62,805 nucleotides of DNA. It comes from an uncultured bacterium (GTDB lineage: Bacteria > Sysuimicrobiota > Sysuimicrobiia > Sysuimicrobiales > Humicultoraceae). A model generated the notes under the pieces. It made no database searches. It was not told the origin of the DNA and saw only the letters and a program-made list of their open reading frames with translations. The stretch lies in assembly GCA_964526945.1 (NCBI GenBank), contig CAZGNA010000001.1, forward strand, positions 1 through 62,805, written 5' to 3'. Below are positions 9,828 through 47,188 of this stretch, piece after piece. Each line of letters opens with the position of its first letter. Position 1 is the stretch's first letter. The position numbers and the translations under genes are program-made.

Positions 9828-9977
9828 GGCCGTCGGCGGAGGCCGCGCGGATGTTGCGGCGGCGAGACCCTACGGCGTGCGGTGGCCGGCCCGGCGTCTA
9901 GACCGTGCGCCGACCGGGCATACTCATTGGTGAATCCGGTACGAGATGAATCCGGTACACTTGGACACGGGAGCCTC

Positions 9978-10060
9978 CGACAACGGCAAACCCGGAGTGA
10001 TCCGGGGGCGCAAAGCTACGGGTCTCATGGGGGTGAACCCATGAGATGGCCGAGTTGCCG
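9978..10060 (+). promoter_or_regulatory. c-di-GMP-I (GEMM-I) riboswitch aptamer
   Basis: Conserved cores GGCAAACC and GGCGCAAAGCU are present. P2 is CCCGGA-GUGA-UCCGGG with a GNRA loop. The P3 hairpin is GGUCUCAUGGG/CCCAUGAGA(U)GGCC. P1 is CGACAAC (9978-9984) paired with GUUGCCG (10054-10060). It lies about 60 nt upstream of the start codon at 10121. Confidence 0.8.
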
Positions 10061-10120
10061 AAGAGGGCTTCGCGCGCGGGACATGCGCGCCGGATGGCTC
10101 CGGAGATGGAGGCGGATCCG

Positions 10121-12355
10121 ATGCGCGTCCGCGCGGGTGTCGCGCTTGTCTGCACTGCTGCACTTCTCGCTGTCGTTGCGCCGGTAGGCTTCGGTTCTGG
10201 CGGCGTTGGGTCTGCACACCGCGGACACCAACGGAACGATCACTTCGTACACTACCGGAACGATCGGGCGCACGAGGCGAGTTTTCGTGGGTTCGGGGAT
10301 CTCCAGGCCGCGCTGGTAGAACCGGCAAACCGCCCGCGGCTCCCCAGCAGGCGTCCTTCCCCCTCCCCCAGTCCCACCCCTGGGCCATCGCCCACACCCA
10401 CGCCGGCACCGACGCCCGTCCCCTCACCGACCCCAACGCCCAGCCCTGGGCCATCGCCCACACCCACACCGACACCGACGCCCGTCCCTTCACCGGTTCC
10501 GACACCCAGTCCGTCCCCGGGCATCACGGGCGCCCGCTGGAGCGATCCGCGCACGTGGCCCGGGGGGCAAGTGCCCTCACGCACGACCGACGTGCTGATT
10601 CCAGTTGGCAAGGCCGTCGAGGTCGACACGGAGCAGGCGGAGGCACGTGTGCTGATCGTCGAAGGGACCCTGGTATTCAGCCGCACCCGCGCTGCGCGGC
10701 TCGCGCTGTACGGCAACCTCATCGTCCGCCAGAGCGGACGGCTCGAGATGCGCCCCGGTGCGCCGGAGATCGTGCACACGATTCAGTTTCTGGGGATCGA
10801 CGAACGCCGGTTCGTGGGCGGCCACACGATGGAGCCGTTGCCGTCCGATGTGGGCCTGTGGGTGCAGGATGGAGCCCTGCTGGACGTGCAGGGCAGCCCC
10901 AAGCTGGCGTGGGGGCGGTTGGCGGGAAGTGCCGCCGCGGGCGACAGTCGGCTCGTGCTGGCGCAGGACCCCGTGGGCTGGCGGGTGGGTGACGAGCTCG
11001 CCATCACGCCGACGCTTCCGCCAACCGTGTGGGGGCACTACGACGCCTACGACTATGCCACTGTCACGCGCATCGTGGGGCGCGAGGTCACCATCGACAG
11101 GCCCCTGCGCTTCGCCCACCCGGCCGTCGAAGTGCGGCCGGGCGTGACCATGACCGCCGAGGTGCTGAACCTGACGCGCAACGTGCGCATCGAGGGTACA
11201 CCCCAGGGGCGTGCGCACGTGATCTTCAACATGGCTCTCCGGCCGCAGGCGCTGCGCTATGCCGCGCTGCGGTACATGGGGCCCCAGCGGCCGCCCGATG
11301 CCGATGGCAACGTCGTCGGCGTGCTTGGACGCTACGGGGTGCATTTCCACCGAATGGGTGACGCAGCGCGGGGGAGCATGGTCGAGGGGGTCGTGGTCCG
11401 GGATGTCGGGCACATCGGCGTCAACGCCCACGGAAGTCACGGTGTGGTGGTCCGCAGGACCATCGTGCACAATGGCTATGCGCCAACGGCCTTCGGCTGG
11501 GACCCCATTGCGGTCGATACGCGCACCAAGAACTTTGCCAACGGGAGTCACGACGTGCTCTACGAGGAGTGCGTGGCATCCCGCATCACCGTAATCCCGG
11601 CATTCAGGGGATACAGGCTCTCGGGGTTCAGCCTGGTCGGGGGGAAGCGCAACCGGTTGATCAACAGCGTCGCCGTTGGCGTCCAGGGGAACAAGGACGC
11701 CAGCGGGGCTGGCTGGGGCGAAGGAGAGTCGGTGGAAGCCACCAAGACGCCAGACGGTGAGCCGTGGGGCGTCTGGGACGTCCAGGGCTTTGTCGGGCAC
11801 AACAACAGACGCCATGGGTGGTTCGTGTGGCAGAATACCGACAACCCGCATGTTGTCGGCGACGGCTCGGTCTTGTACCACAACGGCGGATTGGGGATCA
11901 ACCACGGGGCGTACCTGAACGTCTACCGGTACCGCAACATGACGTTGTTCGGGAACGGTGAAGGAGGGATCGCACTCCGGGCGCGGGGCGCCATCGTCTT
12001 CGAGAACCTGCACATCGACCAGGGCGGGATGACGGACTACGCGGTGCACACCGCCGAGCACGCACTGTCATCGGAGGGGCGCACGCTCTTCCTCGGCGGC
12101 GTGATGCGCGGGTACCGGAAGGCCGGTGTGGCCTTGTTGTGGCCGGGCAGCAGCGGGGTCGCCGACAAGCTCGACGTGGTCGATGTGCAGTTCGGCGGCA
12201 ACGAGTTCTGGGTGAGCGATAGCACCGCGGCGACGTCCAGTGTGCGATGGCAGCGCGGCGGCGACGCGCTGCTGTTGCAGCGACGCGACCAGCCCGGCGA
12301 ATACGTGGAGTCGCGATGGAACGCGAGCGTCACGCGGATCCCGGTGTTCCGGTAG
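10121..12355 (+). CDS. secreted G8-domain / right-handed beta-helix protein with Pro-Thr-Ser linker
   Basis: ORF 10046..12355. ATG at 10121 has GGAGG 8 nt upstream and a signal-peptide-like [28 protein letters not shown]-rich linker follows. The G8-like segment is [30 protein letters not shown]...EGTLVF, followed by GRYGVHFH and beta-helix repeats. Confidence 0.8.
10379..10510 (+). repeat. two tandem copies of a 66-bp (22-codon) unit inside the PT-linker coding region
   Basis: cctgggccatcgcccacacccac... occurs at 10379 and again at 10445. There are 3 substitutions in the first 51 nt. Confidence 0.8.
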
Positions 12356-18953: not shown

Positions 18954-19307
18954 ATGCGGATCCGGGTGATGCGGGAGACCAGGCCGGTGTACGTCATCAG
19001 CGTGGCCGCGGAGATCTGCGGGCTGCACCCGCGCACCCTGCGGATCTACGAGGAGAAAGGGCTCCTCCACCCGGCGCGGCGGAACCGGATCCGGCTGTAC
19101 TCGGAGCACGACATCGAGCGGGTACGGCTGATCCGCCAGCTGATCGAGCACCACCGGTTGAACCTCGCGGGGGTGCGGCTGGTGCTGGAGATGCTCGAGC
19201 GGCTGGAGGCGCGGGTGGGTGCCGCCGCGCCGGGGCAGCGGGGGCAGGACGGTGACATCGTGCGATGGCTGGTAGAACGACTACTCGAAGGAGGGCGAGG
19301 ACGATGA
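18954..19307 (+). CDS. hspR: MerR-family heat-shock regulator, HspR-like
   Basis: PVYVISVAAEICGLHPRTLRIYEEKGLLHPARRN.IRLYSEHDIERVRLI is present. ATG at 18954 has GGTGGAGAA upstream. The ORF-track start at 18915 lacks an SD. Confidence 0.75.
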   Translation: MRIRVMRETRPVYVISVAAEICGLHPRTLRIYEEKGLLHPARRNRIRLYSEHDIERVRLIRQLIEHHRLNLAGVRLVLEMLERLEARVGAAAPGQRGQDGDIVRWLVERLLEGGRGR

Positions 19308-19753
19308 GCCTGATGCGGTGGGATCCGTTCGACGACCTGATGTCGCTGCGGGAGTCGATGGACCGCCTGTTCGAGGACTTCTTCGGACAGCGGCGCACCC
19401 GGCGCGCCATGGTGCCGGCGATCTGGGAGCCCGCCGTCGAGGTCTACGAGACGGACACCGAGGTCGTGGCAAAGGTCGAGCTGCCTGGCCTCGATCCCAA
19501 GAACGTTGAGGTGACGGTGACGCCGGAGGGGCTGAGCATCAAGGGTGAGCACAAGGCCGAGCAGGAGGAGAAGGGCCGGAACTACTACCGCCGCGAACTG
19601 CGGTACGGGGCGTTCCAGCGCTTGATCCCGCTGCCGGGCGAGGTGAAGAGCGAAGAGGCCAAGGCGACGTTCCGTCACGGCATCCTGGAGGTGCGGGTGC
19701 CGAAGTCGGAGCGGGCGCGGCCCAAGACGGTCAAGGTCGAGGTGGCGTCGTAA
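19304..19753 (+). CDS. Hsp20/alpha-crystallin small heat-shock protein
   Basis: MSLMRWDPFDDLMSLRESMDRLFEDFF...AFQRLIPLPGEV...A.F.HGILEVRVPK is present. ATG at 19304 overlaps the hspR stop (ATGA), with GAAGGAGGG upstream. Confidence 0.9.
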   Translation: MSLMRWDPFDDLMSLRESMDRLFEDFFGQRRTRRAMVPAIWEPAVEVYETDTEVVAKVELPGLDPKNVEVTVTPEGLSIKGEHKAEQEEKGRNYYRRELRYGAFQRLIPLPGEVKSEEAKATFRHGILEVRVPKSERARPKTVKVEVAS

Positions 19754-19922
19754 CCTTGTCGGTGGGCGCGGCGGCGTCCGGTGTGGGACTGCAGGAGACG
19801 GGCCGACCGGACGGCGCCGGTGAGCGGTCGTCGGCGGGTGCATGACGCAGTGATCAGAGAGGTGCCGGGCGGCGTGCCCTGCACGAGGGCCTGCCGCCCC
19901 GGTACCGCAGGGGGAGTGAGCA

Positions 19923-21824
19923 ATGGGCAGGGTCGTGGGAATCGATCTGGGCACGACGAACTCGGTCATCGCCCACGTGGTGGGCGGCGAGCCGCAGGTG
20001 ATCGCCAACGCCGAGGGCAGCCGGCTTACGCCCTCGGTGGTGGCCTTCACCAAGACCGGCGAGCGTCTGGTCGGCCAGATGGCCAAGCGCCAGGCGATCC
20101 TGAACCCCGAGAACACGGTCTACTCCATCAAGCGGTTCATGGGTCGCCGGTACGCCGAGGTCGAGACCGAGCGCAAGATGGTGCCCTACAAGGTCGAAGA
20201 GGGGCAGAACGGCATGGCGGTGGTGCGCATCCCGGCCGCCGGGCGGACGTTCACGCCGGAGGAGATCTCGGCGATGATCCTCCAGAAACTCAAGACCGAC
20301 GCCGAGGCGGTGCTGGGCGAGAAGGTGACCGAGGCGGTCATCACGGTGCCCGCGTACTTCAACGATGCGCAGCGGACCGCCACCAAGAACGCCGGCGAGA
20401 TCGCGGGGCTGAAGGTCCTGCGCATCATCAACGAGCCTACGGCCGCCTGCCTGGCCTACGGCCTGGACAAGAAGGGCGCGGAGACGGTGCTGGTCTTCGA
20501 TCTGGGCGGGGGCACCTTCGACGTCTCGATCCTGGAGATCGGCGAAGGGGTCTTCGAGGTGAAGGCCACCAGCGGCGACACCCACCTGGGCGGCGACGAC
20601 TGGGACGAGCGCATCGTGAACTGGCTGGCCGACGAGTTCAAGAAGCAGCAGGGGATCGACCTGCGCCACGACCGCCAGGCGCTCCAGCGGCTGCGGGAGG
20701 CGGCCGAGCGCGCCAAGGTGGAGCTGTCGACCGTGGTCCAGACCACGATCAACCTGCCCTTCATCACCGCCGACGCCACCGGCCCCAAGCACCTGGACAT
20801 GGTGCTGACCCGGGCGAAGTTCGAGGAGCTCACGGCCGACCTGGTCGAGCGCTGCATCGGGCCTTTCAAGCAGGCCCTGGCCGACGCCAAGATGACCGAG
20901 AAGGACATCGACGAGGTCATCCTGGTGGGCGGAGCCACCCGCATGCCCATGATCCAGGAGCTGGTCCGGCGCCTGACGGGGAAGGAGCCCAACCGCGAGG
21001 TGCACCCCGACGAGGTGGTGGCGGTGGGGGCGGCGATCCAGGCCGGCGTGCTGGCGGGGCAGGTCCGCGAGGTGGTGCTGCTGGACGTGACGCCGCTGTC
21101 GCTGGGCGTGGAGACCCTGGGCGGCGTGATGACCACGCTGATCCCCCGCAACACGACGATCCCCACCCGCAAGAGCGAGACGTTCACCACGGCCGCCGAC
21201 GGCCAGACGCAGGTGGAGATCCACGTGCTGCAGGGCGAGCGGCCCATGGCGCGCGATAACCGCACGCTGGGGCGCTTCATCCTCGACGGGATCCCGCCGG
21301 CGCCGCGGGGGGTGCCGCAGATCGAGGTGACGTTCGACATCGACGCCAACGGCATCCTGAACGTCACGGCCAAGGACAAGGCCACGGGCCGCGAGCAGTC
21401 CATCAAGATCACCGGCACCTCGACCCTCTCGAAGGACGAGGTCGAGAAGATGGTCAAGGAGGCCGAGCGCTTCGCCGAGGAGGATCGCCGGAAGCGCGAG
21501 GCGGCCGAGGCGCGCAACCGCGGCGACTCGGTGCTCTACCAGGTCGAGAAGCTGCTGCGCGAGCACGGCGACAAGGTCTCGGCCGACGAGCGTGCCCGTG
21601 TGGAGCAGGCGCTGGGGGAGCTGCGCGAGGCGTTGAAGGGCGACGACATTGCGCGCATCACGCGCGCCGCGGACGCCGTGCAGCAGGCCTCGTACAAGCT
21701 GAGCGAGGCCATGTACAAGGCGACGGCGGGCGCCCCGACCGGCGCGGGCGGGCCGACGGGCGGGCCTGCCGGCAAGCCCGGCGGTGACGACGTGATCGAC
21801 GCCGAGTACAAGCCGACGTCGTAG
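19923..21824 (+). CDS. dnaK: molecular chaperone DnaK (Hsp70)
   Basis: [17 protein letters not shown]..., [12 protein letters not shown] and the full-length pattern are present. Confidence 0.98.
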
Positions 21825-21833
21825 GCAGGACCG

Positions 21834-22499
21834 ATGGACAGGGAACGGACGATCAACGGCGAGGTCGCAGGCGACGAGCGCCCGTCGGCGCCCCACGAGG
21901 CGCAGGCGACCACGCGCACCGGGGAGCCCGAGTCCCAGGTCCCGGGGGCAGCGGCGGCCGGGGACGTCGCGGAGGGCGAGACGGCTGCCGGTGAGGAGGA
22001 GGCCGTGTCCGCGCGCGACCAGGAGGTGGCGGCCTTGCGAGAGCAGGTCGCCCGGCTGACCGAGGAGGCCGAGCGCAACTGGCAGCAGTTCCTGCGGACG
22101 GCCGCCGACCTCGAGAACTACCGAAAGCACGCCGCCCGGCAGCGGGAGGAAGCGGTCGCCACCACCCGGCGGGCCCTGCTGCGGGTCGTGCTGGGGGTGG
22201 TCGACACGCTGGAGCGCGCCCTGCAGCACGCCAGCGAGGGCGCGGGCGAGGCGAACGCGGCTGCCATTCTCGACGGGATCCGCCTGGCGCACCGCGAGGT
22301 GCTCGAGACGCTGCGCGGCATGAACGTGCGCCCTATCGATGCCGTGGGGCAGCCGTTCGATCCGCGCGTGCACGAAGCGGTCGAGGCCGTGGCATCCGAC
22401 GACCAGACGCCCGCGGGCACGGTGGTCGGTGAGGTGCAGCGGGGGTACATGATGGGCGACGAGGTCTTGCGGCCGGCCAGGGTGCGGGTGGCGCAGTAG
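21834..22499 (+). CDS. grpE: nucleotide exchange factor GrpE
   Basis: NYRKHAARQREEA...FDPRVHEAV...V..V.QRGY..GD.VLRPA.V.VAQ is present, and it sits directly after dnaK. Confidence 0.95.
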   Translation: MDRERTINGEVAGDERPSAPHEAQATTRTGEPESQVPGAAAAGDVAEGETAAGEEEAVSARDQEVAALREQVARLTEEAERNWQQFLRTAADLENYRKHAARQREEAVATTRRALLRVVLGVVDTLERALQHASEGAGEANAAAILDGIRLAHREVLETLRGMNVRPIDAVGQPFDPRVHEAVEAVASDDQTPAGTVVGEVQRGYMMGDEVLRPARVRVAQ

Positions 22500-22525
22500 T
22501 CGTGCCCCGGCGCCCAGGGTGAGCC

Positions 22526-23506
22526 ATGGAGTTCAAGGACTACTACAAGATCCTGGGCGTCGACCGGCGGGCCGATCAGAAGGCGATCAGCCAGGCGTTC
22601 CGCCGCCTGGCGCGTCAGTACCACCCGGACGTCAACAAATCGAAGGGCGCCGAGGACCGCTTCAAGGAGATCAACGAGGCCTATCAGGTCCTGAGCGACC
22701 CGCAGAAGCGGGCCCAGTACGACCAGATCTACGACGCATACCAGTCCGGGGTGCCGCTGCACGACCTGTTCGGGCGCATGGGCGGCGCGCGCACGTGGGC
22801 GGGCCCCGGCGGGTTCACCGTGACCGTCGGCGGCGAGAACCTGGAGGACCTGCTCGGCGGCACCCTGGGCGGGTTCTCGGAGTTCTTCCGCGCGTTCTTC
22901 GGCGACCTGGGCGGTCTGGGCGGGTTCGGCCGGCCCGGCCGGGCCGGACGTGCGGCCGAGGCGTGGGACCAGGTTCAGCCCACGGGGCCCACGGCGGGCG
23001 CACGACCGGCGGAACACCGTGGCACGCTGACCCTCACCCTCGAGGAGGTACTCCACGGGGCCCGGCGGCGCATCCGGCTGCCGGACGGCAGGCAGGTCGA
23101 GGTGCAGGTGCCGCCGGGAGTGCGGGCGGGTCAGACCATCCGCCTGCCCGGTGCTGCCGGCGGGCAGGACGTGTACCTGACGGTCGAGGTGGCCCCCCAC
23201 CAGGTCTTCGAGCGCACGGGCGACGACCTGGTGGTGGACGTCTCGGTGCCGTTCGTCGACGCCGCGCTGGGCGGCCAGGTCGAGGTGCCCACGCTGGAGG
23301 GCAGGATGGTGGTGACGGTCCCGCCCGGGACGCAGTCGGGCCAGCGGCTGCGGCTGCGCGGGCAGGGGTTGCCCCGGGCACAGGGGGGCCGGGGCGACCT
23401 GTACGCCCGCGTGAAGGTTGCCGTGCCCACGACGCTGTCACCCCGGGAGCGGGCGCTGCTGGAGGAACTGCGACGGCTGCAGCGTGAGCCGTCGCGGAAG
23501 GTCTGA
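22526..23506 (+). CDS. dnaJ: J-domain co-chaperone, DnaJ/CbpA type without zinc-finger domain
   Basis: The J domain DYYKILGV...YHPDVNK is followed by a G/F-rich linker and C-terminal substrate-binding domains. No CxxCxGxG repeats are present. Confidence 0.9.
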
Positions 23507-23538
23507 GAGAGACGGAAAGCCTGAAAGAGGGACGGGAG

Positions 23539-26169
23539 ATGGCGATGCGATTCGATCGGTTGACTGAAAAGGCGCAGGAGGCGTTGCTGACGGCGCAGCA
23601 GGAGGCGACGACACGGGGACACCAGGCGCCGGACCCGGAGCACCTGTTGCTGGCCCTGGCCACGCAACCGGACGGGCTGGTGCCGCGTATCCTGGCCAAG
23701 CTGTCCGTGGACCCGCGCGTGCTGCGCACCCGGCTGGTCCACGGGCTCGATCGTCGTCCCCGCGTGGTCGGGGGGGCTGCGCCCGCGGGGGGCATCGCGC
23801 TGACCCCGCGGCTGGCCCGCGTGCTGGAGGCCGCGCAGCGCGAGGCGGACCGGTTGAAGGACGACTACGTCAGCACCGAGCACCTGCTGCTGGGGCTGGC
23901 GCAGGACGCCGACGGCGAGGCGGTCGCGCTGCTGCGCGAGGCGGGCGTCACCGTGGACCGCATCTACCAGGCGCTGGAGGAGATCCGGGGCGCGCAACGG
24001 GTCACCGATCCCCATCCGGAGAGCAAGTACCAGGCGCTGGAGCGCTACGGCCGCGACCTGACGCAGCTGGCGGCGGCGGGCAAGCTCGACCCCGTCATCG
24101 GCCGGGACGAGGAGATCCGCCGGGTGATCCAGATCCTGGCCCGGCGCACCAAGAACAACCCGGTGCTCATCGGCGATCCGGGCGTGGGGAAGACGGCCAT
24201 CGTCGAAGGGCTGGCGCAGCGCATCGTCCGCGGCGACGTGCCGGAAGGGCTCAAGCACAAGCGCGTGATCCAGCTGGACATGGGCGCGCTCGTGGCGGGC
24301 ACCAAGTACCGCGGGGAGTTCGAGGACCGCCTGAAGGCCGTGTTGCGCGAGATCGCCGCCGCCGAGGGGCAGATCATCCTGTTCATCGACGAGCTCCACA
24401 CGGTGGTGGGCGCGGGCGCGGCCGAGGGCGCCATCGACGCGGCCAACCTCCTCAAGCCCATGCTGGCCCGGGGCGAGCTGCACGCCATTGGGGCCACCAC
24501 CCTCGACGAGTACCGCAAGCACATCGAGAAGGACGCAGCGCTGGAGCGCCGCTTCCAGCCGGTCTACGTCGGCGAGCCGTCGGTGGAAGAGACCATCAGC
24601 ATCCTGCGCGGGCTCAGGGAGCGGTACGAGGTGCACCACGGCGTACGCATCGCCGACTCGGCGGTGGTGGCGGCCGCGACGCTGTCGGACCGGTACATCA
24701 GCGGGCGCTTCCTGCCCGACAAGGCCATCGACCTCATCGACGAAGCCGCCAGTCGTCTGCGCATGGAGATCGACAGCAAGCCCGCCGAGCTCGACGAGGT
24801 CGATCGGCGGATCATGCAACTGGAGATCGAGCGGGAGGCGTTGCGTCGGGAGACCGACCCGGCCAGCCGCGAGCGGCTGCAGCGGCTGGAGGAGGAGCTG
24901 GCGGGGCTGCGCGAGCAGTCGGAGGCGCTGCGCCGCCAGTGGGAGCAGGAGAAGCAGGCCATTCTGGCCATCCGTGCCACCAAGCAAAAGATCGAGGAAG
25001 TCCGCCACCAGATCGAGGAGGCCGAGCGCCGGGCCGACCTGGAGCGGGCGGCGCGGCTGCGGTACGGCGAGCTGCCCGACCTGGAGCGTCAGCTGCGGGC
25101 CCAGGAGGAGCAGCTGCGGCAGGTGCAGGCCCACGGGCGGCTGCTCAACGAGGAAGTGACGGCCGACGAGATCGCGGAGGTCGTGGCCCGCTGGACGGGG
25201 ATTCCGGTGCAGCGGTTGCTGGAGGGCGAGATGGCGAAGCTGCTGCACCTGGAAGCGCGGCTCCACGAGCGGGTGGTCGGGCAGGACGAGGCGGTGGCCG
25301 CGGTGGCCGACGCCATCCGCCGCGCGCGCGCGGGCCTCAAGGATCCGCGCCGGCCCATCGGGTCGTTCCTCTTCCTGGGGCCGACCGGTGTGGGCAAGAC
25401 CGAGCTGGCCCGGGCGCTGGCCGAGGTGCTGTTCGACGACGAGGGCGCCATGGTGCGGCTGGACATGTCCGAGTACCAGGAGCGCCACACCGTCAGCCGC
25501 CTGGTGGGCGCGCCACCCGGGTACGTGGGGTACGAGGAGGGCGGCCAGCTCACCGAGGCCGTGCGACGGCGACCCTACCGCGTGGTGCTGTTCGACGAGA
25601 TCGAGAAGGCGCACCAGGACGTCTTCAACTTGCTGCTGCAGATCATGGACGATGGGCGGTTGACCGACGGGCACGGCCGCACCGTGGACTTCCGGAACAC
25701 GGTGATCATCATGACCAGCAACCTTGGCAGCCGCCACCTCCAGGGGCTCGAGGAGCGAGATCCGGCAGCGTTCGAGATGGCGCGGGTCCTGGTGCTGGGG
25801 GAGTGCCGCAAGGCGTTCCGCCCGGAGTTCCTGAACCGGATCGACGAGATCGTCGTCTTCCGGCCCCTCACGCGCGAGCAGCTGGTGGCGATCGCGGGGC
25901 TGCAGCTGCGACAGCTGGCAGCACGGCTGGCGGCGCAGGGGATCGGGCTGGAGGTGACAGACGCCGCCAAGGCCTGGCTGGCCCGGGAGGGCTACAACCC
26001 CGACTTCGGCGCGCGGCCGCTGCGCCGGCTGATCCAGAAGGAAGTGGAGAACGCCATCGCGCGCGGCCTGCTGGCGGGCGCGTTCCGCCCGGGGCAGACG
26101 GTGGTGGTCGATCTGGAGGGCGAGCGGTTGACGTTCACCGCCCGCGTGCCGGCAGAGGTGGTCTCGTAA
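23539..26169 (+). CDS. clpB: ATP-dependent disaggregase ClpB
   Basis: There are two AAA modules ([15 protein letters not shown] and [12 protein letters not shown]), a long coiled-coil middle domain and a Clp_N N-terminus. Confidence 0.97.
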
Positions 26170-26185
26170 CAGGGAATCGGCACGT

Positions 26186-26215
26186 GCGGCCGCACCGTGA
26201 CCACGGTGCGGCCGC
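26186..26215 (+). terminator. GC-rich hairpin downstream of clpB (no U tract)
   Basis: GCGGCCGCACCG (26186-26197) pairs with CGGTGCGGCCGC (26204-26215), loop TGACCA. It lies 17 nt after the clpB stop. Confidence 0.5.
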
Positions 26216-26349
26216 GCTGCGTCCCGTTGGCGCGCACCCGGCTTCGTGGGCCGGTGCCCGTCGGTTTCCGCCGTCGCCGGGCGTCGCGCTGTGGTGGCCC
26301 CGAGGGGTGGCCAGCCGGTATCTGCGCCGCGGTGGGGTCGTGGTAGCAT

Positions 26350-27882
26350 GTGGGCGAACCAGCCGGCGAACGGGAGGTGGCGTCGATCCTCGAGGTCATC
26401 GTCTTCACCAGCGGGGGCGTGCTGCTGTCGCTGGAGATCATCGCCAGCCGGGTCCTGGCCCCCTACTTCGGCAACTCGATCTACGTCTGGGGGAGCCTGA
26501 TCGGTGTCTTCCTGACGGCGCTGTCCGTCGGCTACGCCGTGGGCGGTCGGCTGGCCGACCGCTTTCCCTCGCCGACGGTGTTCTCCGGGATCGTCTTCCT
26601 GGCGGGGCTGCTCACGGTGCCGATCCCGGTCATGGCCCCCACGGTGCTGGACGCCATCGCCCGGGCCGACTTCGGCCCCCAGCTGAACCCGCTGGTGGGA
26701 GCCACGGTGCTCTTCGTGGTGCCCAGCATCGTGATGGGCATGGTGTCGCCCTTCGCCGTGCGCCTGCGCGCGCGCGCGGTGGCCACCATGGGGCAGACGG
26801 CCGGGTCGCTGTACGCCATCAGCACGGTGGGCTCCATCGTCGGCACGCTGGCGACGTCGTTCGTCCTCATCAACTACCTGGGGGTGCGGGCCATCATCCT
26901 GCTCATGGGCTTCGCGCTCATGGGGATGGCCGTGCTGGGCTGGCTGGTCGGGCGCCGGATGGTGCCGGCGGGCGCGGGCGCCGCGCTGGTGGTGGTGCTG
27001 GTGGGCGGCGTGGCGCGGCCGGAGGCGCTGGCGCCCCCGGTGGTCTACGCGCGGGATACCGTCTACCACCGCATCACGGTCACGGACGAAGGACCGATCC
27101 GGTACCTGAAACTCGACAACTACTGGCAGAGCGCGACCGACCGCGAGCAGCCACGGCGGACCGTGTTCGCCTACGCCGACTACATGCACCTGCCGCTGGT
27201 CTTCGTCGCCGAGCCCCGGCGGGCGTTCCTGATCGGGCTCGGCGGCGGGACCGTCCCGGCCCGCTACGTGGCCGACTACCCGTCGGTCGTGATGACCGTG
27301 GCCGAGCTCGACCCGGAGGTGGTCCGGACGGCGCGCGAGTTCTTCGCCGTGACGCCCGGCGAGCGGCTACGGATCGAAGCGCGCGACGGCCGCCTGCACC
27401 TGCTGCGGCTGGCGGAGCCCCAGGACGTCATCCTCACCGACGCCTACCTGATCGATACCATCCCCTTCCACCTGGCCACCCGCGAGTTCTTCGCGCTGGC
27501 CCGCGCGCGGCTGGCGCCCGGCGGCGTGGTGACGTCCAACATCATTGGCGCGCTGGAGGGCCCCGACAGTCGGCTCTTCCGCGCCATCTACAAGACGATC
27601 CGGCAGGTCTTCCCCACCGTGTACGTGTTCCCCGTGGACTTTGCCCGCTACGGGTCGCCCGCGTCGTTGCGAAACATCGTCGTGGTGGCCACCGCCGCGC
27701 CCCGCTGGTCGGCGGCGGAGGTGCGTCGCCGCGCGCAGACGCTGGCGGCAAGCGGTCGGGTGACGGTCGAGCGCTTCGTGGAGGCGGCGGCCAGCCTCTA
27801 CGAGGTGCCGATTCGAACCGACGATGTCCCGGTGTTGTCCGACGACTTCGCGCCCGTGGATGCCCTCATTCCGCGTCGCTGA
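26350..27882 (+). CDS. membrane-anchored spermidine synthase-like (polyamine aminopropyltransferase family) protein
   Basis: A multi-TM N-terminal half is followed by LIGLGGGTVPARY...VAELDPEVV...DVILTDAY. The start codon is uncertain. Confidence 0.75.
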   Translation: MGEPAGEREVASILEVIVFTSGGVLLSLEIIASRVLAPYFGNSIYVWGSLIGVFLTALSVGYAVGGRLADRFPSPTVFSGIVFLAGLLTVPIPVMAPTVLDAIARADFGPQLNPLVGATVLFVVPSIVMGMVSPFAVRLRARAVATMGQTAGSLYAISTVGSIVGTLATSFVLINYLGVRAIILLMGFALMGMAVLGWLVGRRMVPAGAGAALVVVLVGGVARPEALAPPVVYARDTVYHRITVTDEGPIRYLKLDNYWQSATDREQPRRTVFAYADYMHLPLVFVAEPRRAFLIGLGGGTVPARYVADYPSVVMTVAELDPEVVRTAREFFAVTPGERLRIEARDGRLHLLRLAEPQDVILTDAYLIDTIPFHLATREFFALARARLAPGGVVTSNIIGALEGPDSRLFRAIYKTIRQVFPTVYVFPVDFARYGSPASLRNIVVVATAAPRWSAAEVRRRAQTLAASGRVTVERFVEAAASLYEVPIRTDDVPVLSDDFAPVDALIPRR

Positions 27883-34937: not shown

Positions 34938-37277
34938 ATGGCTGATGGCCCGGTCCTCGACCGCGTGCCGCCGCAGAACCTCGAGGCGGAACAGAGTGTG
35001 CTGGGCTCGATGCTGCTCGAGCGCGACGCCATCGCGCGGGCCGTGGAGATTCTCCGCCCGGAGGACTTCTATCGCGAGGCCCACCGGCGCATCTTCGAGA
35101 CGATCGCCGACCTGTTCGAGCGCGGCGAGCCCGCGGACCTGATCACCGTCACCGACCGGCTGCGCGCCCGCGGGCTCCTCGACGACGTGGGCGGGGTGGC
35201 CTACGTCACCTCGCTGCTGCACACGGTGCCGACCGCCGCCAACGTCGAGTACTACGCCCGGATCGTCGTCCAGAAGTCGATGCTGCGCCAGCTGATCCAC
35301 GCGGGCACGCGGATCGTGGACATGGGCTACCGCGAGGACCAGGACGTCGAGGTGCTCGTCGACCAGGCCGAGAAGCTGGTCTTCGGCATCGCCTCCCGTC
35401 GCATGGGGCAGGAGTTCGTGCCGCTGCCGGAGATCCTGCGCGAGAGCTTCGACCGCATCGACAAGCGCTACCGGGAGAAGGGGACCATCACCGGGGTGCC
35501 CACGGGGTTCGTCGAGCTGGACAAGCTGACGTCCGGCCTGCAGCCCGCCGACCTCATCATCGTGGCCGCCCGACCGTCGATGGGCAAGTGTCTCAAGTTC
35601 GACGCCGAGGTGGTCGACGCCGTCACCGGCGAGGTGCGGACGATCCAGGAGCTGGTGGCCGCCGGCCGCGCACGCCTGCTGACGCTTGGGGCCGACCACC
35701 GGTTCCGGCCCGCCGAGCCCAGCCTCTTCGTCGACGACGGCATCAAGCCGGTCTTCCGCGTCACCACCAGCGGCGGGCGCCAGGTGGAGACGACGCTCAC
35801 GCACCCGTTCCTGACGCCCCACGGGTGGGAGCCGCTGGCTGCCCTGCAGCCGGGCGCGCTGGTGGCGGTGCCACGCCGCCTGCCGGTGTTCGGCCGGGGC
35901 GAGCTGCCCGATCACGAGATCAAGCTGCTGGCCTACGTGTGCAGCGGGCGTCTGCCCACCCATCCCGCGATCGCCGAGGACTTCGCCGACGCCGCGGCCG
36001 CGGCCGAAGCGATCCTGGCGGCCGCGCGCCGAACGGTCGACGTCCGCGCCATCGGCGGTGGCGCCGAAGGCGGACTGGCCATCGAGGACCTGCGCTGGCG
36101 CTACCCCGAGCTGGCGCAGCCCCCGGGCGCCCGCGGGCTGCCCGCAGCCGTCTTCACCCTGCGGCGCGAGAAACTCGCCCTGTTCCTCAACCGCCTGCTG
36201 GGAGCCACCGCCGAGGTGGCCGAACACCCGGACGGCTACCGGGCGACGGTTGTGTTGCCGTCGGCGCGCATGGCGCGCCAGGTGCAGCACCTGCTGCTGC
36301 GGTTTGGGGCCCCGGCCGTCCGGGACGGGGCTACGCTCGCGCTGGGGGTGAGCGCGACGCTGGCCGTCGTGCGCGAGTGCGGCCTGTTCGGGTGGGAGCG
36401 GTTGCGCCGGTGGGCCCGGCACGCCCAGCGTTCGCTGCTGGACGACGTGGACGTCATGTGGGAGGAGATCGTGCACATCGAGGAGATCGGGGCCTCGCAG
36501 GTGTACGACCTCACCGTGCCCGAGACCCACAACTTCGTCGCCAACGACGTGTGCGTGCACAACACGACGTTCGCCCTGAACATCGCGCAGCATGCAGCGC
36601 TGGAGCACAAGATCCCCGTGGCGATCTTCAGCCTCGAGACCAACAAGGAACAGCTCGTGCAGCGGATGTTGTGCAGCGAGGCGCAGGTCGACTCGTCCCG
36701 GTTGCGCACGGGCTACCTGACCGACGCCGACTGGCCCCGGCTGGCGGCGGCGATGGGGCGACTGTCGGAAGCGCCCATCTTCATCGACGATACCGCCAAC
36801 CTCACCGCCATCGAGATGCGCGCCAAAGCCCGCAAGCTGCGGGCCGAGCACGGCCTGGGCCTCATCATCATCGACTACCTGCAGATGATCCAGTCGTACA
36901 AGCGGGCGGAGAACCGTACGCAGGAGGTGTCGGAGATCGCCCGCGCCATCAAGTCGCTGGCGAAGGAGCTGGACATCCCGGTGCTGGCCGTCTCGCAGCT
37001 GTCGCGGGTCGTGGAGCTGTCGGGGACGAAGCGTCCCCAGCTGTCGCACCTGCGCGAGTCGGGCGAGCTGGAGCAGGTCGCCGACCTGGTGTTGTTCATC
37101 TACCGCGAGGACTACTACGACCACGCCAAGGCCCGCGCCGAGGGCAAGGAGCACATCGCCGAGATCCGCATCGCCAAGCACCGCAACGGGCCGGTGGGCG
37201 ACATCGAGATGTTCTTCCACAAGGAGTACGGGCGGTTCATGGACCTCGACCGGCGCCACGCGGCGGCAGGGTCGTAG
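34938..37277 (+). CDS. dnaB: replicative DNA helicase DnaB, interrupted by an intein
   Basis: The N-terminus is PPQNLEAEQSVLGSML. Walker A is split as ARPSMGK | intein | TTFALNIA. The C-terminal RecA-like domain is intact. The exteins total 454 aa. Confidence 0.95.
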   Translation: MADGPVLDRVPPQNLEAEQSVLGSMLLERDAIARAVEILRPEDFYREAHRRIFETIADLFERGEPADLITVTDRLRARGLLDDVGGVAYVTSLLHTVPTAANVEYYARIVVQKSMLRQLIHAGTRIVDMGYREDQDVEVLVDQAEKLVFGIASRRMGQEFVPLPEILRESFDRIDKRYREKGTITGVPTGFVELDKLTSGLQPADLIIVAARPSMGKCLKFDAEVVDAVTGEVRTIQELVAAGRARLLTLGADHRFRPAEPSLFVDDGIKPVFRVTTSGGRQVETTLTHPFLTPHGWEPLAALQPGALVAVPRRLPVFGRGELPDHEIKLLAYVCSGRLPTHPAIAEDFADAAAAAEAILAAARRTVDVRAIGGGAEGGLAIEDLRWRYPELAQPPGARGLPAAVFTLRREKLALFLNRLLGATAEVAEHPDGYRATVVLPSARMARQVQHLLLRFGAPAVRDGATLALGVSATLAVVRECGLFGWERLRRWARHAQRSLLDDVDVMWEEIVHIEEIGASQVYDLTVPETHNFVANDVCVHNTTFALNIAQHAALEHKIPVAIFSLETNKEQLVQRMLCSEAQVDSSRLRTGYLTDADWPRLAAAMGRLSEAPIFIDDTANLTAIEMRAKARKLRAEHGLGLIIIDYLQMIQSYKRAENRTQEVSEIARAIKSLAKELDIPVLAVSQLSRVVELSGTKRPQLSHLRESGELEQVADLVLFIYREDYYDHAKARAEGKEHIAEIRIAKHRNGPVGDIEMFFHKEYGRFMDLDRRHAAAGS
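35589..36563 (+). mobile_element. intein (325 codons) inserted in the DnaB P-loop
   Basis: It starts with Cys (CLKFDAEVVDAVTGE) and has block B TLTHPFLT. It ends ...THNFVANDVCVHN and is followed by Thr. The central region carries only degenerate LAGLIDADG-like segments (KLLAYVCSGR, LALFLNRLLGATAEV). Confidence 0.9.
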
Positions 37278-43306: not shown

Positions 43307-43384
43307 GCCCCCATCGTCTAGGCAGGCCCAGGACACCGGTCTTTCAAGCCGGTAACGCGGGTTCGAATCCCGCTGGGGGCACCA
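43307..43384 (+). tRNA. tRNA-Glu (anticodon UUC)
   Basis: Manual cloverleaf: acceptor GCCCCCA/TGGGGGC, anticodon arm CCGGT-CTTTCAA-GCCGG, T arm GCGGG-TTCGAAT-CCCGC, encoded CCA. It resembles E. coli tRNA-Glu. Confidence 0.95.
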
Positions 43385-43709
43385 CCGACACTTGCTCCTC
43401 GGGCACCTCGTGAGACCGCTCGGTACCCGCGTCCCGGCACGACGCGCGCCGGGAGGAGGACCTCTGGGGCGCGGCGGGCGCTACCGGACCACCAGTCGAG
43501 CGAACTCCCCCCCACCGTACCTGTCGCCTAGCCCGCAGCCCTCGCAGACCAGGCCCGTGATCTGCTACAGAACTGCTACACGCCCGGGCGAAAGTCTAGT
43601 CGCCGCTTTAGGCGCGGTCAGCCACCGGACGCGGAGGGTGCGAGCTTGACACGGGCGGCGCAGCGTGTACCCTGCCCCCGGGCTAGACCGCTTGAGGGGG
43701 TGGGTGACC

Positions 43710-44174
43710 ATGTCGAAGTGGCACTACGACAACACCCCCGACGAACTCCGGGGCCGCCCGCAGTGGGTGTGCTGGCGGTACGAGGATCGCGCGGGGAAGA
43801 AGACGAAGGTCCCGACGGACCCACGCACGGGCGCTAACGCCAGCATCAAGGAGCGCACGTGGGACTTTGACACCGTGCGCGAGGCTGCCGACCAGCACGG
43901 CTGGGGCGTAGGCTTCGTGCTCAGGGAGGCAGACCCGTACGTGGCCTTCGACCTAGACGACGTGGTCGACGAGGCGGGGCAGGTCCAGCCCTGGGCCGCA
44001 GCCCTTGTGCGGGGGCTGGGATCCTACACGGAGCGAACCCCTTCTGGCCGGGGTCTGCGGGTTATCGTCCGAGGATCCCTGCCGCCCGGCAGCCGCCGGA
44101 AGCTGGGCAGCTATTTATCCACCCGTTCCGCCCGCCCCTTGAAGTGGTTCCGGGCATCCTGCCGGTCGGGCTAA
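43710..44174 (+). pseudogene. bifunctional DNA primase/polymerase (Prim-Pol) N-terminal fragment
   Basis: RGRPQWVCWRYE...KKTKVP...GWGVGFVL...YVAFDLDDVVD...SYTERTPSGRGLRVIVRG is present, then the sequence degenerates. ATG at 43710 follows GAGGGGG. Confidence 0.65.
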
Positions 44175-45456
44175 CGCTTCTGGCCGGACCGCCCAAGATC
44201 GGCAAGTCCTGGTTGGCGCTGCACGTGGCGGTGGGGGTCGCCTGCGGGCGCCCCGTGTTTGGCGATATCGCGTACTGGCCCGCCGGTCCGCGCGGCGTAC
44301 TGTGCCTGGCCCTGGAGGATAGCGAGCCTCGGGTGCGGAAGCGCCTCAGCGAAGTGGCGGACGACTACTTGGCACGGCTGGGGCGCTGGACGTTGGAGGG
44401 GCGGCCTCTGCCGGAGCCGATGCTCGAGGGCAAGCCGCTTCCGCAGCCGGAGCCCTGGTACAACACCCTTATGCCCCTGGCCCTGGAGATCGACACCCGC
44501 CTGGAGCAGGGCGAGACCGAGGAGGACATCGTCAAGGACCTGGGCCAGCGCGGCTACACGGCCAAGGAGATCCGGAACGCGCAGCGCGTGCTTGAGGAGG
44601 CGGACGATGCCGCCCTGCGGCCGATGCACCTGGCGATGCACCTGATGACCCGGGACCCGCTCGGCTTTCTGGACCGCTTTGCCGTGGCGTGTCGGGAGGC
44701 CCCGCCCGTGGACGAGCTGGTCGGCGCCCTCGACACGTGGCGCCAGCAGCACCCGGACCTCGGCTGGTCGTGGTGGACATCCTGGCCGGAATACGGCCGC
44801 GGGCCAAGCCCAACGTCAGCCTGTACCAGCAAGACATCGAGGCCCTCCGACCTCTGCGGGCGTGGGTGCACGAGGCAGAGGTCGCGGCCCTGGTCGTGCA
44901 CCACACGCGAAAGCGAGGAGCGGGCGGGGTGGCCGACGACCTCGTGGAGGCCGTCAGCGGAACCATGGGGCTCCCGGGGACCGCTGACACGGTGTGGGGG
45001 CTACGGCGGAAGGGAGACCGGTACCTGCTGGAAGTGCTGGGGCGGGACGTGGAGGGCCGCACGCTCGAACTGGAGGGGCCCACGGCGTGGCGCGTGATAC
45101 CCTCTGGCGAGGGGCAGGGGGACGCGATTCTGAACTTCGTCCGCGGGCACCGGGGGTGCACGGAGCTGGACATCAAGACGGGGATGTCCGGCGACAACAC
45201 GGAGATAGCCAAGGCCCTGCGTGCCCTGGTGAACCGCGGGGTAATAAGGCGCGAGGGCACGGGCAGGAAGGGGCCGCGGCCACCCAAAGTACCCGACGGC
45301 GCAAGAAGCCGCCGTGGTTTCCGACCCTTAGCTTGCCGGGCAGAAATATGGAGGCGGACGAATGGCCTGCAAGTGCGGCCGTCAGCCGATAGCCGGGGAA
45401 GTCATGAACGCGGTGTCGTTTCCTCCGCACCACGAGGAACTCGCAGCTGCCCTTGA
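44144..45456 (+). pseudogene. AAA_25 / RepA-like RecA-fold helicase, frame-disrupted
   Basis: The first frame gives LTLLAGPPKIGKSWLALHVAV...VLCLALEDS. The second frame gives LVVVDILAGIRP...AALVVHHTRKRG...GLPGTADTVWGLRR plus a C-terminal wHTH-like end. The switch is near 44759-44763. Confidence 0.7.
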
Positions 45457-46267
45457 ACACGCCGCCCGCCACGGGACGCTGGCGGCTCTGCAGCGCTCCA
45501 CGCCGGGCGAGAAACCGCGGACGAACCCCTGGCTGCCAGATCCGTTGAAGTGGTGGATTTTGCCCATGATGTCCAGGAAGACGGCCATACAAATGGGGAT
45601 GACGACCCTGCGCGTCCTCTACATGTTCTTGGCAGTACTGCGCCCACTGAGAATCCTCAGGGCAGTCCGGTGTCTAGGCGAGAGTCAGTTGCCCACGCAG
45701 GTGGTAGTCGACGCCGTGGTCCTGGCAGCCATGGAAGGCTACAGGATCAGCTGGAACTTCGACGAGCCCGACATGCCTTACTGGTGGTACTTCGAGGCCG
45801 ATGGCTCGTACTTCTGGGTTTGCGAGCACGGAGAGGGATCCCTCGTCACACCCAGCGAGCTGTTCAGTCGTCGCAAGCCGTTTCCCTGGTTGTTCCTGGA
45901 TCGGCCACATAGCCAGTGGATGACCGTCAGCTATCCCGCCCGATACATGGAGCTGAAGCCGCAGTTCCATCCGACCTTCGACTACCCAGCGTACCGCATC
46001 CCGTCTCGGTGCAGGGAGTTGGTCTTTGACCCCGACCGCGAGCGTTTCTTCCTGCTGCGGGTCTCGGGAGGGGCATCGCGGAAGATCAGCGTCGAGGAGC
46101 TGCCGGGTTACACTTCCGGGGACGACGAAGAGTGGGGCGCCCTGGGCAAGGGGCTCCGGAAAGTGGTGAGGCTCCTCCGGCCTCCCCGGTCGTCGCACGG
46201 AGACTGGCTGGCCTGCGCCCGGGAGGCAGGGGAAAGACTGGCCAGGCTCGCGGGGCACCAGGGTTGA
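45404..46267 (+). CDS. orphan hypothetical protein (Trp/Phe/Tyr-rich, one hydrophobic segment)
   Basis: ORF 45362..46267 has no recognisable motif and lower GC than the flanks. The start is uncertain (45362, 45404 or 45566). Confidence 0.4.
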   Translation: MNAVSFPPHHEELAAALEHAARHGTLAALQRSTPGEKPRTNPWLPDPLKWWILPMMSRKTAIQMGMTTLRVLYMFLAVLRPLRILRAVRCLGESQLPTQVVVDAVVLAAMEGYRISWNFDEPDMPYWWYFEADGSYFWVCEHGEGSLVTPSELFSRRKPFPWLFLDRPHSQWMTVSYPARYMELKPQFHPTFDYPAYRIPSRCRELVFDPDRERFFLLRVSGGASRKISVEELPGYTSGDDEEWGALGKGLRKVVRLLRPPRSSHGDWLACAREAGERLARLAGHQG

Positions 46268-46439
46268 ACCGAGCTGTGAGCCAGGGGCAAGGCAGAACGT
46301 GCACTCCGAGGGCACGCGCCCCACGGGCAGCGGAACCACCGCGGCAGGAGCGGCCCGCGACTCCCGCGAAGGCGCCTGCGGCGTCAGCGCGTGGCCACCG
46401 TGCGGCGCGCCGGAAACCGGAGGACGAGGGGTGGGGGCG

Positions 46440-47057
46440 ATGCCACGAATTCCGTACGTCGATCCCGAGACGATCGCTGACCCGGAGATCCGGGGCTACC
46501 TGGAGCGGGCCCGGCGCGAGGGGACGCCGCGTCCCGAGAGCCAGGCGATTCGGGCGCACAACCCCGGCGTCATCCGGGCCTTTTCGCAGGCGTGGGAGCT
46601 GACGTTCCGCCACGGCGTGCTGGACCACGCCATCAAGGAGCTGTGCCGCGTTTACGTGTCGAAGTCCATCGAGTGCGAGTACTGAGGGGTCCAGCGGTCC
46701 GTCCAGGCTGGACGGAAGGGCCTGACCGAGGAGAAGTACGACGCGCTCCTCAACTTCGCTGACAGCGATCTGTTCACCGAGCGCGAGAAGGTGGCGCTGA
46801 CGTACGTCAGCGCCATCGTCTGGAACGCGGAGATCGCCGATGATGCGCTGTGGGCCAGGCTGTACCAGCACTTCACCATTCCCGAACTCGTGGAGCTGGG
46901 GTTCTTCGCGGCGCTGACCCTGGGCCAGCAGCGGTGGATCAAGACCCTGGGGATCGCCCACGGTGAGGTGCTGGGCGATACCACGGCGGGCCTGGCGCCG
47001 ACCGCGCGCCCCGGGGGCCCTGCAGCCGCCGGCCCGGCGGAGTCGCGGTCGTCCTGA
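46440..47057 (+). CDS. carboxymuconolactone decarboxylase / AhpD-like family protein with in-frame TGA (codon 82) at the second redox Cys position; candidate selenoprotein or nonsense allele
   Basis: ORFs 46299..46685 and 46791..47057 share one frame with a single TGA (46683-46685) between them. Read-through gives ...VSKSIECEY[TGA][24 protein letters not shown]...REKVALTYV..., a full-length CMD fold. Confidence 0.6.
46689..46716 (+). promoter_or_regulatory. SECIS-like hairpin(s) immediately 3' of the in-frame UGA
   Basis: One hairpin is GTCCAGC (46689-46695) paired with GCTGGAC (46707-46713), with a loop starting GGUC. The alternative is TCCGTCCA (46698-46705) paired with TGGACGGA (46709-46716), loop GGC. 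Confidence 0.4.
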
Positions 47058-47188
47058 GCGCCGGCACGCATGTGTTCGAGAGCAACCGGCGTGCCGGGTG
47101 CGGAATTGGCGTACGAGCCGGGGACGTTTGCTACTGTGCGTCCGATTCTTCCGCACACGGTCGCCTGCTGGCGAGAGGAGCCGGAGTG

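Follow-up and report, generated by a model that had tools for sequence, protein, structure and literature searches.

Within a 62,805-nt stretch of contig CAZGNA010000001.1 (assembly GCA_964526945.1), which derives from an uncultured bacterium of the Sysuimicrobiota (family Humicultoraceae) and is hereafter called the window, we identified a gene at positions 46440..47057 (+ strand) whose reading frame carries a single internal UGA codon. Based on comparisons with more than one hundred relatives, this locus is very probably a bona fide bacterial selenoprotein gene of the carboxymuconolactone decarboxylase (CMD)/AhpD fold, in which the UGA would be recoded as selenocysteine (Sec) under the direction of a selenocysteine insertion sequence (SECIS) located immediately downstream. 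Direct support for this reading comes from the frame itself, from a UGA that is kept among relatives, from purifying selection acting after this codon, from a hairpin that is both conserved and covarying, and from the protein fold. A first-pass annotation of the same DNA, made from sequence alone, had proposed an AhpD/CMD selenoprotein with Sec in place of the second Cys and an associated SECIS, and the UGA conservation, selection, and hairpin conservation reported here all support that proposal.

From ATG 46440 to position 47057, the gene forms one frame with a sole internal stop, the TGA at 46683-46685 (codon 82), as had already been recognized in the first-pass annotation. Read through, it yields a product of 205 residues (205 codons with Sec at codon 82, plus the terminal TGA) that matches the Pfam CMD family PF02627 over residues 43-123, with 31 bits for a cut-off of 23. 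The single frame, Pfam match, fold model, and dN/dS values are consistent with a coding sequence for a CMD/AhpD-fold protein, putatively a thiol-selenol oxidoreductase by analogy with known family members. The peptide around the UGA reads VSKSIE-C79-E-Y-UGA82-G-V-Q-R-S, corresponding to a candidate redox motif C79-E-Y-U82. Cys79, the first residue of this C-x-x-U motif, is encoded by a TGC at 46674..46676 (+), a position occupied by TGC or TGT in all orthologues, and the residue is invariant in the family. The codon read here as Sec82 (46683..46685, +) is TGA in every genome-derived relative and nearly every metagenome-derived one, and more distant homologues carry Cys. Upstream of the ATG, a purine-rich, Shine-Dalgarno-like stretch (GGAGGA...GAGGGG, 46419..46432, +) is apparent from the sequence, and 121 of 127 orthologues have an equivalent motif ahead of this start, the start codon itself being ATG in 122 of the 127. 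The frame closes at 47055..47057 (+) on a TGA that acts as an ordinary stop. No consensus sigma-70 promoter or intrinsic terminator was found around the gene.

In alignments with hundreds of homologues, the UGA falls in the column of the second CxxC cysteine, and the same correspondence is seen with the CMD proteins 2ijc, 2o4d, 7xw1, and 2gmy from the PDB, so that its earlier assignment to the second redox Cys holds. A protein search returned 4,740 homologues, mostly full-length Cys forms, and ten of the closest ones, all of them JGI gene calls, display a Trp at the UGA column. Reading the DNA underlying these JGI calls revealed that the "W" residues correspond to TGA at codon 82. We then identified relatives directly at the DNA level. 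A genome scan limited to one genome per species provided 45 close relatives with 71-91 % amino-acid identity, from metagenome-assembled genomes (MAGs) labelled as Binatia, Rokubacteria/Methylomirabilota, "delta proteobacterium", Armatimonadota, Chloroflexota, Actinomycetota, Burkholderiales, and Sysuimicrobiota. Codon 82 was TGA in 47/47 genome-derived loci (these 45 genome relatives plus JGI contigs), and among 79 further readable loci from a metagenome scan it was TGA in 77 and TGC in 2, i.e. TGA in 124 of 126 DNA-level relatives overall. The orthologue alignment recommended in the first-pass annotation thus returned TGA almost without exception at this codon, with Cys appearing further out. 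Counting the window, the Sec-form loci from genomes and metagenomes number 128 (65-91 % amino-acid identity), and 122 of these display an intact 180-codon frame with the codon-82 stop as the only one. Premature ends were found in only two Sec-form loci, one of them L045; in this nanopore-derived MAG, a +1 frameshift at ~10430 (codon ~143) may reflect either an assembly error or a pseudogene. The TGA-bearing contigs come from dozens of independent projects, and the family occurs in soil, groundwater, and hot-spring MAGs, with Sec forms far outnumbering Cys forms among close relatives.

Selection extends across the UGA. The median pairwise dN/dS was 0.087 for codons 2-81 vs 0.125 for codons 83-180, at a dS of ~1.1-1.3, and downstream values ranged from 0.11 to 0.15. 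Within the sub-clade containing the window (window, L006, L013, L011, L025, L033, L034, and L015), dN/dS was 0.10 upstream and 0.11 downstream. Codons 83-117, the stretch that separates the UGA from the following in-frame start of the window (GTG 46791), displayed a dN/dS of 0.139, and this potential restart codon is not conserved, with GTG found at codon 118 in only 29 of 117 orthologues. These ratios indicate that purifying selection after the UGA is about as strong as before it. Elsewhere, UGA behaves as a stop: TGA is the commonest normal stop in the window, where it ends 23 of 42 open reading frames (ORFs) with high GC3, and it also terminates 78 of 123 orthologues of this gene. We also scanned the window for further in-frame TGAs flanked on either side by coding signal, and besides codon 82 this returned only ordinary gene junctions. 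Since UGA is a normal stop elsewhere, the recoding would be specific to codon 82.

Immediately 3' of the UGA, the RNA can fold into a hairpin (46699..46715, +) composed of a 5' arm at 46699-46705, a GGC loop at 46706-46708, and a 3' arm at 46709-46715, which we interpret as the SECIS core based on its pairing, covariation, frozen synonymous sites, and energy. Folding alone did not distinguish this region from its background: the minimum free energy (MFE) was -21.3 kcal/mol, with a z-score of -1.08 vs shuffled sequences in a context of 71 % GC, which is not significant. Given this unremarkable folding energy, the question was decided by sequence comparison, using an alignment of 34 sequences (A2) and a full set of 81 non-redundant Sec forms. 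Among the 34, 97.5 % of cells were paired across 46699-46705/46709-46715 vs 15-43 % in shifted registers, two pairs showed changes on both sides, and 0 of 500 shuffles matched the observed pairing or covariation score. In the set of 81, the six core pairs were 98.8-100 % paired, and three of them displayed compensatory states, namely 46700/46714 (CG 63, UA 12, GC 5), 46701/46713 (GC 75, GU 4, AU 1), and 46702/46712 (UA 74, CG 6, UG 1). The synonymous sites tell a similar story, as third-position entropy at four-fold codons was 0-0.25 bit in the stem vs 1.4-2.0 bits in the flanks. Stem codons are near-fixed (GTC 47/49, GGA 47/49, and CGG), the window stem uses codons that are rare in its host (GGA, 4 %; GCT, 2 %), and random synonymous recoding of the SVQAGR peptide with host codon usage preserves the six pairs in 3.6 % of cases. 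In several pair swaps, one of the two changes is silent while the other alters the amino acid (V to A, R to Q), and the RNA element thus constrains the sequence of the protein itself.

The loop bases are GGC, GGG, GUC, or GGU, with G first in 80 of the 81 sequences. L144 represents the exception, with a register-shifted hairpin of similar stability and a different local peptide (SARAADSL). The published consensus for bacterial SECIS elements comprises a loop of 3-9 nt, an upper stem of 4-16 bp, a G within the first two loop positions, a UGA-to-loop spacing of 16-37 nt, and an MFE at or below -7.5 kcal/mol (PMC13188914). The window hairpin falls within each of these ranges: its apical loop is 3 nt (GGC) or 5 nt (AGGCU), its stem 6-7 bp, a G is present in the first two loop positions, the UGA-to-loop spacing is 20 nt, and its energy is -11.7 kcal/mol. 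It also carries one extra U-A pair (46698/46716). No Rfam family covers the hairpin, either in a scan of the window at gathering thresholds or in a permissive scan of 46600-46800, which returned noise only. The first-pass annotation had put forward two alternative hairpins, both of which can be drawn on this sequence. The second of these is the one described above, which proved conserved and covarying in both the 34- and 81-sequence sets. The first (46689-46695/46707-46713) was rejected as a SECIS, as its arms were 83.6 % paired, 15 of the 34 sequences break its central pair, and no covariation was seen, so that neither conservation nor covariation supports it.

Cys forms close to the Sec clade provide an indication of the direction of change at codon 82. 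The nearest ones (P0003, P0004, P0006, and L071) carry TGC, one base from TGA, and keep the hairpin. A SECIS-like hairpin is likewise kept in the Cys forms L056 (10001-10600; also L057), L058, L059, and L071, and the one of L056 carries a C-G to G-C swap. The L056 gene is located in a 2-oxoacid dehydrogenase cluster, between genes for E1-alpha, E1-beta, and a peptidase M24 and a lipoyl-E2 gene. The Cys form L133, with local peptide SVKGRQQG, is devoid of the hairpin (3 of 6 pairs, -4.8 kcal/mol). In a neighbour-joining tree, which was built without support values and is thus indicative only, the distant outgroups are all Cys forms, the Sec forms compose one large clade, and isolated Cys leaves stand beside Sec sisters. 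The simplest reading of this pattern would be that Cys gave way to Sec once or a few times, and that Sec later reverted to Cys several times, leaving a fossil SECIS behind. A published study described SECIS remnants in the Cys homologues of other families and, for AhpD-like proteins, recorded only Cys-to-Sec events (PMC1794560). A 2026 review considers Sec-to-Cys changes to be rare in bacteria.

To place the protein within its superfamily, we relied on an AlphaFold model of the Cys form P0004, which is 79 % identical to the window protein, rather than on a model of the window sequence itself. The predicted structure is all-helical (pLDDT 90.5, pTM 0.85), with C79 just before, and residue 82 inside, a short helix spanning residues 80-83. 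Foldseek connected this model to the AhpD-core and peroxidase-related structures 2prr, 6k40, and 2oyo with TM-scores of 0.74-0.79, more broadly to PA0269/AhpD (7xw1) and the debrominase Bmp8, and only weakly to Mycobacterium tuberculosis AhpD (0.43-0.44). As modelled, the fold is that of the AhpD core, with a CMD domain unbroken across the UGA. TIGR01926 (peroxid_rel) scored 24.7 bits for a cut-off of 81.8 and NF041047 scored 13.6 bits for a cut-off of 110, while the best NCBIfam match, NF053654 "YciW-related (seleno)protein" (GroundWater_YciW; E 3e-17, residues 1-158), reached 62.8 bits for an equivalog cut-off of 310. By curated cut-offs, the generic Pfam CMD model is the only one that accepts the sequence. 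The residue at +4 after codon 82 is Arg86 and not His, as had been pointed out earlier, and the protein therefore lacks the CxxCxxxH active site of M. tuberculosis-type AhpD. Q85-R86-S87 is invariant in both Sec and Cys forms, and from this alignment Arg86 appears to be a trait of the whole subfamily and not a defect of the window copy. No conserved neighbour or operon partner was identified around the orthologues, the best neighbour cluster being found in 34 of 122 loci and missing from the window.

These observations suggest the following mechanism. Translation would start at ATG 46440 and, instead of terminating at the UGA at 46683-46685, would proceed through this codon because the mRNA hairpin at 46699-46715 acts as a bacterial SECIS. 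We infer that this element would recruit SelB-GTP-Sec-tRNA(Sec), leading to the insertion of selenocysteine as residue 82, and that translation would then continue to the TGA at 47055-47057 to yield a 205-residue protein with a redox centre Cys79-Glu-Tyr-Sec82; expression in this host is part of the same inference. By analogy with AhpD, this centre may cycle between a selenol/thiol and a selenenylsulfide state in a peroxide or disulfide oxidoreductase, with peroxides, or else a partner peroxiredoxin or disulfide, as possible substrates of the C79/U82 thiol-selenol couple. The gene would have arrived on, or would survive on, a small insertion next to a tRNA-Glu gene.

The genomic setting of the window copy is consistent with such an insertion. 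The window represents an NCBI contig in full (62,805 bp). Its housekeeping genes share at least 90 % identity with their counterparts in an "Armatimonadota"-labelled MAG with a 3.15-Mb contig (GCA_031459855.1), whereas a Candidatus Fervidifonticultor (Sysuimicrobiota/CSP1-3) MAG carries the closest orthologue of the selenoprotein (L006, 91 %). Collinearity with the GCA_031459855.1 relative (94-96 % nucleotide identity) is interrupted at one place only: the segment from 43385 to ~47097-47169 corresponds to 265 bp in this relative. Two further strains (L061 and L062) are likewise devoid of the segment, and in these three sister strains (L060, L061, and L062; 82-96 % identical) adh_short, tRNA-Glu, and GSDH are adjacent. 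Junction mapping, combined with ARAGORN and Rfam predictions, placed the left boundary (43384/43385) exactly at the 3' end of a tRNA-Glu(UUC) gene (43307..43384, +). In the flanks of the orthologues (L001-L144, ~1 Mb), tRNA density was very low, with 4 tRNAs detected, three of them the tRNA-Glu of the sister strains. Collinear comparison, GC content, and Pfam annotation together delineate a strain-specific, lower-GC insertion of ~3.7 kb (43385..47097), with a GC content of 0.60-0.70 vs 0.72-0.77 in the surrounding DNA. It encodes an AAA_25 ATPase ORF (44144-45097), two ORFs without any Pfam family (43665-44174 and 45362-46267), and, as its last gene, the selenoprotein. Extra DNA at a tRNA 3' end and a deviant composition are two features of tRNA-targeted islands that are present here. 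A Pfam search of the insertion yielded no integrase domain, and the tRNA 3' end is not repeated at the right junction as an att direct repeat would be. A 12-nt imperfect inverted repeat (43433-43444 / 47087-47098) lies near both insertion ends, probably by chance.

Beyond these close strains, we found no DNA-level synteny between the window locus and the other loci, nor any of the other insertion genes beside orthologues elsewhere. Across the family, the gene sits in many unrelated contexts and nominal phyla, a distribution consistent with the horizontal spread of a self-contained unit made of the gene and its SECIS. A broader scenario would link these elements: the gene, carrying its SECIS inside the ORF and lacking conserved neighbours, would be a self-contained selenoprotein cassette that moves horizontally between bacteria of many phyla in soil, groundwater, and hot springs; it would have recently inserted beside tRNA-Glu in one strain of a CSP1-3/Sysuimicrobiota-like lineage, a phylum without reported Sec use; and within the clade Sec would have repeatedly reverted to Cys (TGA to TGC), with a now-useless fossil SECIS left in place, a direction unrecorded for AhpD-like proteins. 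We consider this combined scenario speculative, and it is rather doubtful that all of its parts hold together.

Several observations weigh against a functional selenoprotein at this locus. ARAGORN detected no tRNA-Sec, either in the 62.8-kb window or in related loci totalling ~1 Mb, a tblastn search of 1.07 Mb using validated probes (SelA, SelB, and SelD of E. coli) found no selA, selB, or selD, the in-frame TGA scan provided no second selenoprotein candidate in the window, and we found no published reports of Sec use in CSP1-3/Sysuimicrobiota. The absence of the segment from the three sister strains and the non-significant folding energy point in the same direction. Pfam likewise identified no sel genes among the window ORFs, so that the lack of selA, selB, selC, and selD in the window, remarked upon in the first-pass annotation, was borne out by these searches. 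The location of the gene on a strain-specific insertion gives more weight to the question of whether the host possesses a Sec machinery. One may thus argue that the family is a real selenoprotein family but that the window copy is a recently acquired orphan or pseudogene in a host without Sec machinery, where it would produce an 81-residue stub and be bound to decay. The insertion, with its lower GC and its absence from sister strains 82-96 % identical to the window, would fit this view, as would a window free of sel genes, tRNA-Sec, and further selenoprotein candidates, and a literature silent on Sec use in this phylum. The window copy shows no sign of decay, though: its start, Shine-Dalgarno-like motif, frame, and stop are intact, its SECIS corresponds to the consensus plus one extra pair, and both L006 (91 %) and the MAGs of the same sub-clade have intact frames with a downstream dN/dS of 0.10-0.11. 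Methylomirabilota, one of the lineages carrying the gene, has very large predicted selenoproteomes (PMC13188914). An orphan copy is therefore unlikely in our assessment, a recent arrival in a host unable to decode Sec is not favoured despite the strain-specific insertion, and functional Sec decoding in this host seems likely from the state of the gene.

The remaining explanations fare considerably worse. The first-pass annotation had itself considered a simple TGC/TGT-to-TGA nonsense mutation of a Cys-form gene, the hairpin being a chance GC-rich feature. A single substitution does separate TGA from TGC, the latter is present in a few close relatives, and the hairpin z-score is only -1.08; yet TGA is kept in 124 of 126 relatives across a dS of ~1, purifying selection persists after it, and the hairpin combines covariation with frozen synonymous sites. 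The pattern named beforehand as the signature of such a mutation, i.e. Cys orthologues and an unconserved hairpin, is the opposite of what we observed, and a nonsense allele is exceedingly improbable. A genome-wide reassignment of UGA to Trp or Gly (code 4 or 25) could be suspected from the ten JGI protein records with W at the UGA column, but these residues are TGA codons translated under another table, TGA ends 23 of 42 high-GC3 window ORFs, this gene, and 78 of 123 orthologues, and the in-frame TGA scan found gene-to-gene junctions only, leaving this idea with hardly any credibility. The UGA could also separate two polypeptides, with a stop at codon 82 and a restart at GTG 46791, or could be read through by a near-cognate Trp or Cys tRNA independently of any SECIS, with the hairpin merely slowing the ribosome. 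ORF finders do list 46299-46685 and 46791-47057 separately, and low-level near-cognate UGA read-through occurs in bacteria. A restart would nevertheless leave codons 83-117 untranslated despite their dN/dS of 0.139 and would depend on a GTG present at codon 118 in only 29 of 117 orthologues, and both the CMD domain and the predicted fold are continuous across the UGA. As for SECIS-independent read-through, the hairpin fits the SelB-type bacterial SECIS consensus in its loop G, spacing, and stem, and a Trp inserted at this catalytic Cys position would be non-functional. We consider these last two variants, taken together, very improbable. SECIS-directed insertion of Sec at codon 82 hence remains by far the preferred reading.

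Other features of the window were noted during this analysis. The Rfam scan at gathering thresholds returned only three tRNAs and one c-di-GMP riboswitch. The latter, a c-di-GMP-I-GGC aptamer (RF03167, 68.8 bits for a cut-off of 59) at 9976-10063 (+), is located directly upstream of, and overlaps the start of, an ORF encoding a 769-residue G8-domain protein (10046-12355). The replicative helicase DnaB (34938-37277, +; 779 residues) contains an intein, identified through a Pfam Intein_splicing match between two DnaB_C segments in at least 90 % identical relatives (P0133, P0128, and P0129), and this intein is conserved in all four strains examined. A heat-shock/chaperone cluster at 19265-27882 (+) comprises Hsp20, a 633-residue ORF (probably DnaK), GrpE, a 326-residue ORF (probably DnaJ), and ClpB, and these genes were used to identify relatives of the contig.

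The family is poorly served by current annotations. In NCBI, ENA, and other resources, it appears as an 81-residue N-terminal stub named "hypothetical protein" (window 46440-46685), within a cluster of 108 members at 90 % identity. JGI calls instead translate the Sec-UGA as Trp, and one spliced gene call (P0029) leaves out 23 codons around it; the mishandled protein records comprise P0001, P0002, P0005, P0007, P0009, P0010, P0023, P0025, P0027, P0028, and P0029. Public databases thus mis-annotate this gene and more than 100 orthologues, no dedicated NCBIfam model captures the subfamily, and the alignment and SECIS described here could serve to correct these records. The locus also offers a clean natural case of an RNA element dictating a protein sequence, with the SVQAGR peptide and its rare codons fixed by the SECIS, and its strain-variable insertion provides a way to ask how selenoprotein genes move and whether recipients must already be able to decode Sec. 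We regard the novelty as modest, and it lies in a Sec-dominated terrestrial subfamily outside the curated models, in apparent Sec-to-Cys reversions with a fossil SECIS, and in a strain-specific insertion site.

AhpD-like (COG2128) and CMD-domain (PF02627) CxxU selenoproteins have been reported from Sargasso Sea and Global Ocean Sampling (GOS) metagenomes (PMC1088965, PMC2398784) and are listed in PMC13188914, which confirms the mention of such proteins in the first-pass annotation. This type of selenoprotein has been known since 2005, and the window gene adds to a known family, with the same fold family, the same CxxU motif with Sec in place of the second Cys, a SECIS within the ORF directly downstream, widespread Cys homologues, and homologues that JGI labels "alkylhydroperoxidase family enzyme". 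It differs in its conserved subfamily motifs (one of them ending in x-Y-U-G-x-Q-R-S), in passing only the generic Pfam CMD threshold while missing those of TIGR01926 and NF041047, the models applied to more specific families in PMC13188914, and in its origin from MAGs of soil, groundwater, and hot springs instead of marine plankton, with Sec forms dominating among close relatives. These relatives thus add a widespread, terrestrial, Sec-dominated clade to the AhpD-like selenoproteins. Similarly, NF053654 represents the same AhpD/YciW type of (seleno)protein and aligns over residues 1-158, but with 62.8 vs 310 bits the window protein appears to belong to a related but distinct family.

The window element resembles the SECIS of E. 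coli fdhF in being an intra-ORF stem-loop that directly follows the UGA, with a loop G and a spacing, stem, and stability in line with the consensus, and some orthologues display a GGUC(A/U) loop like that of fdhF. Unlike the fdhF element, the window hairpin has a short and simple stem of 6-7 bp, a GGC or AGGCU loop, and no demonstrated bulged U, and its binding by SelB is putative. M. tuberculosis AhpD, finally, carries a CxxCxxxH active site and is reduced through the lipoamide of DlaT and Lpd. The two proteins share an all-helical CMD fold with CxxC/U at a helix start, but the family described here has an invariant Arg86 in place of the His at +4, a TM-score of only 0.43-0.44 to the mycobacterial enzyme, and no conserved partner gene. 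The position of the Cys form L056 inside a 2-oxoacid dehydrogenase E1-E2 operon is nonetheless reminiscent of this lipoamide link.

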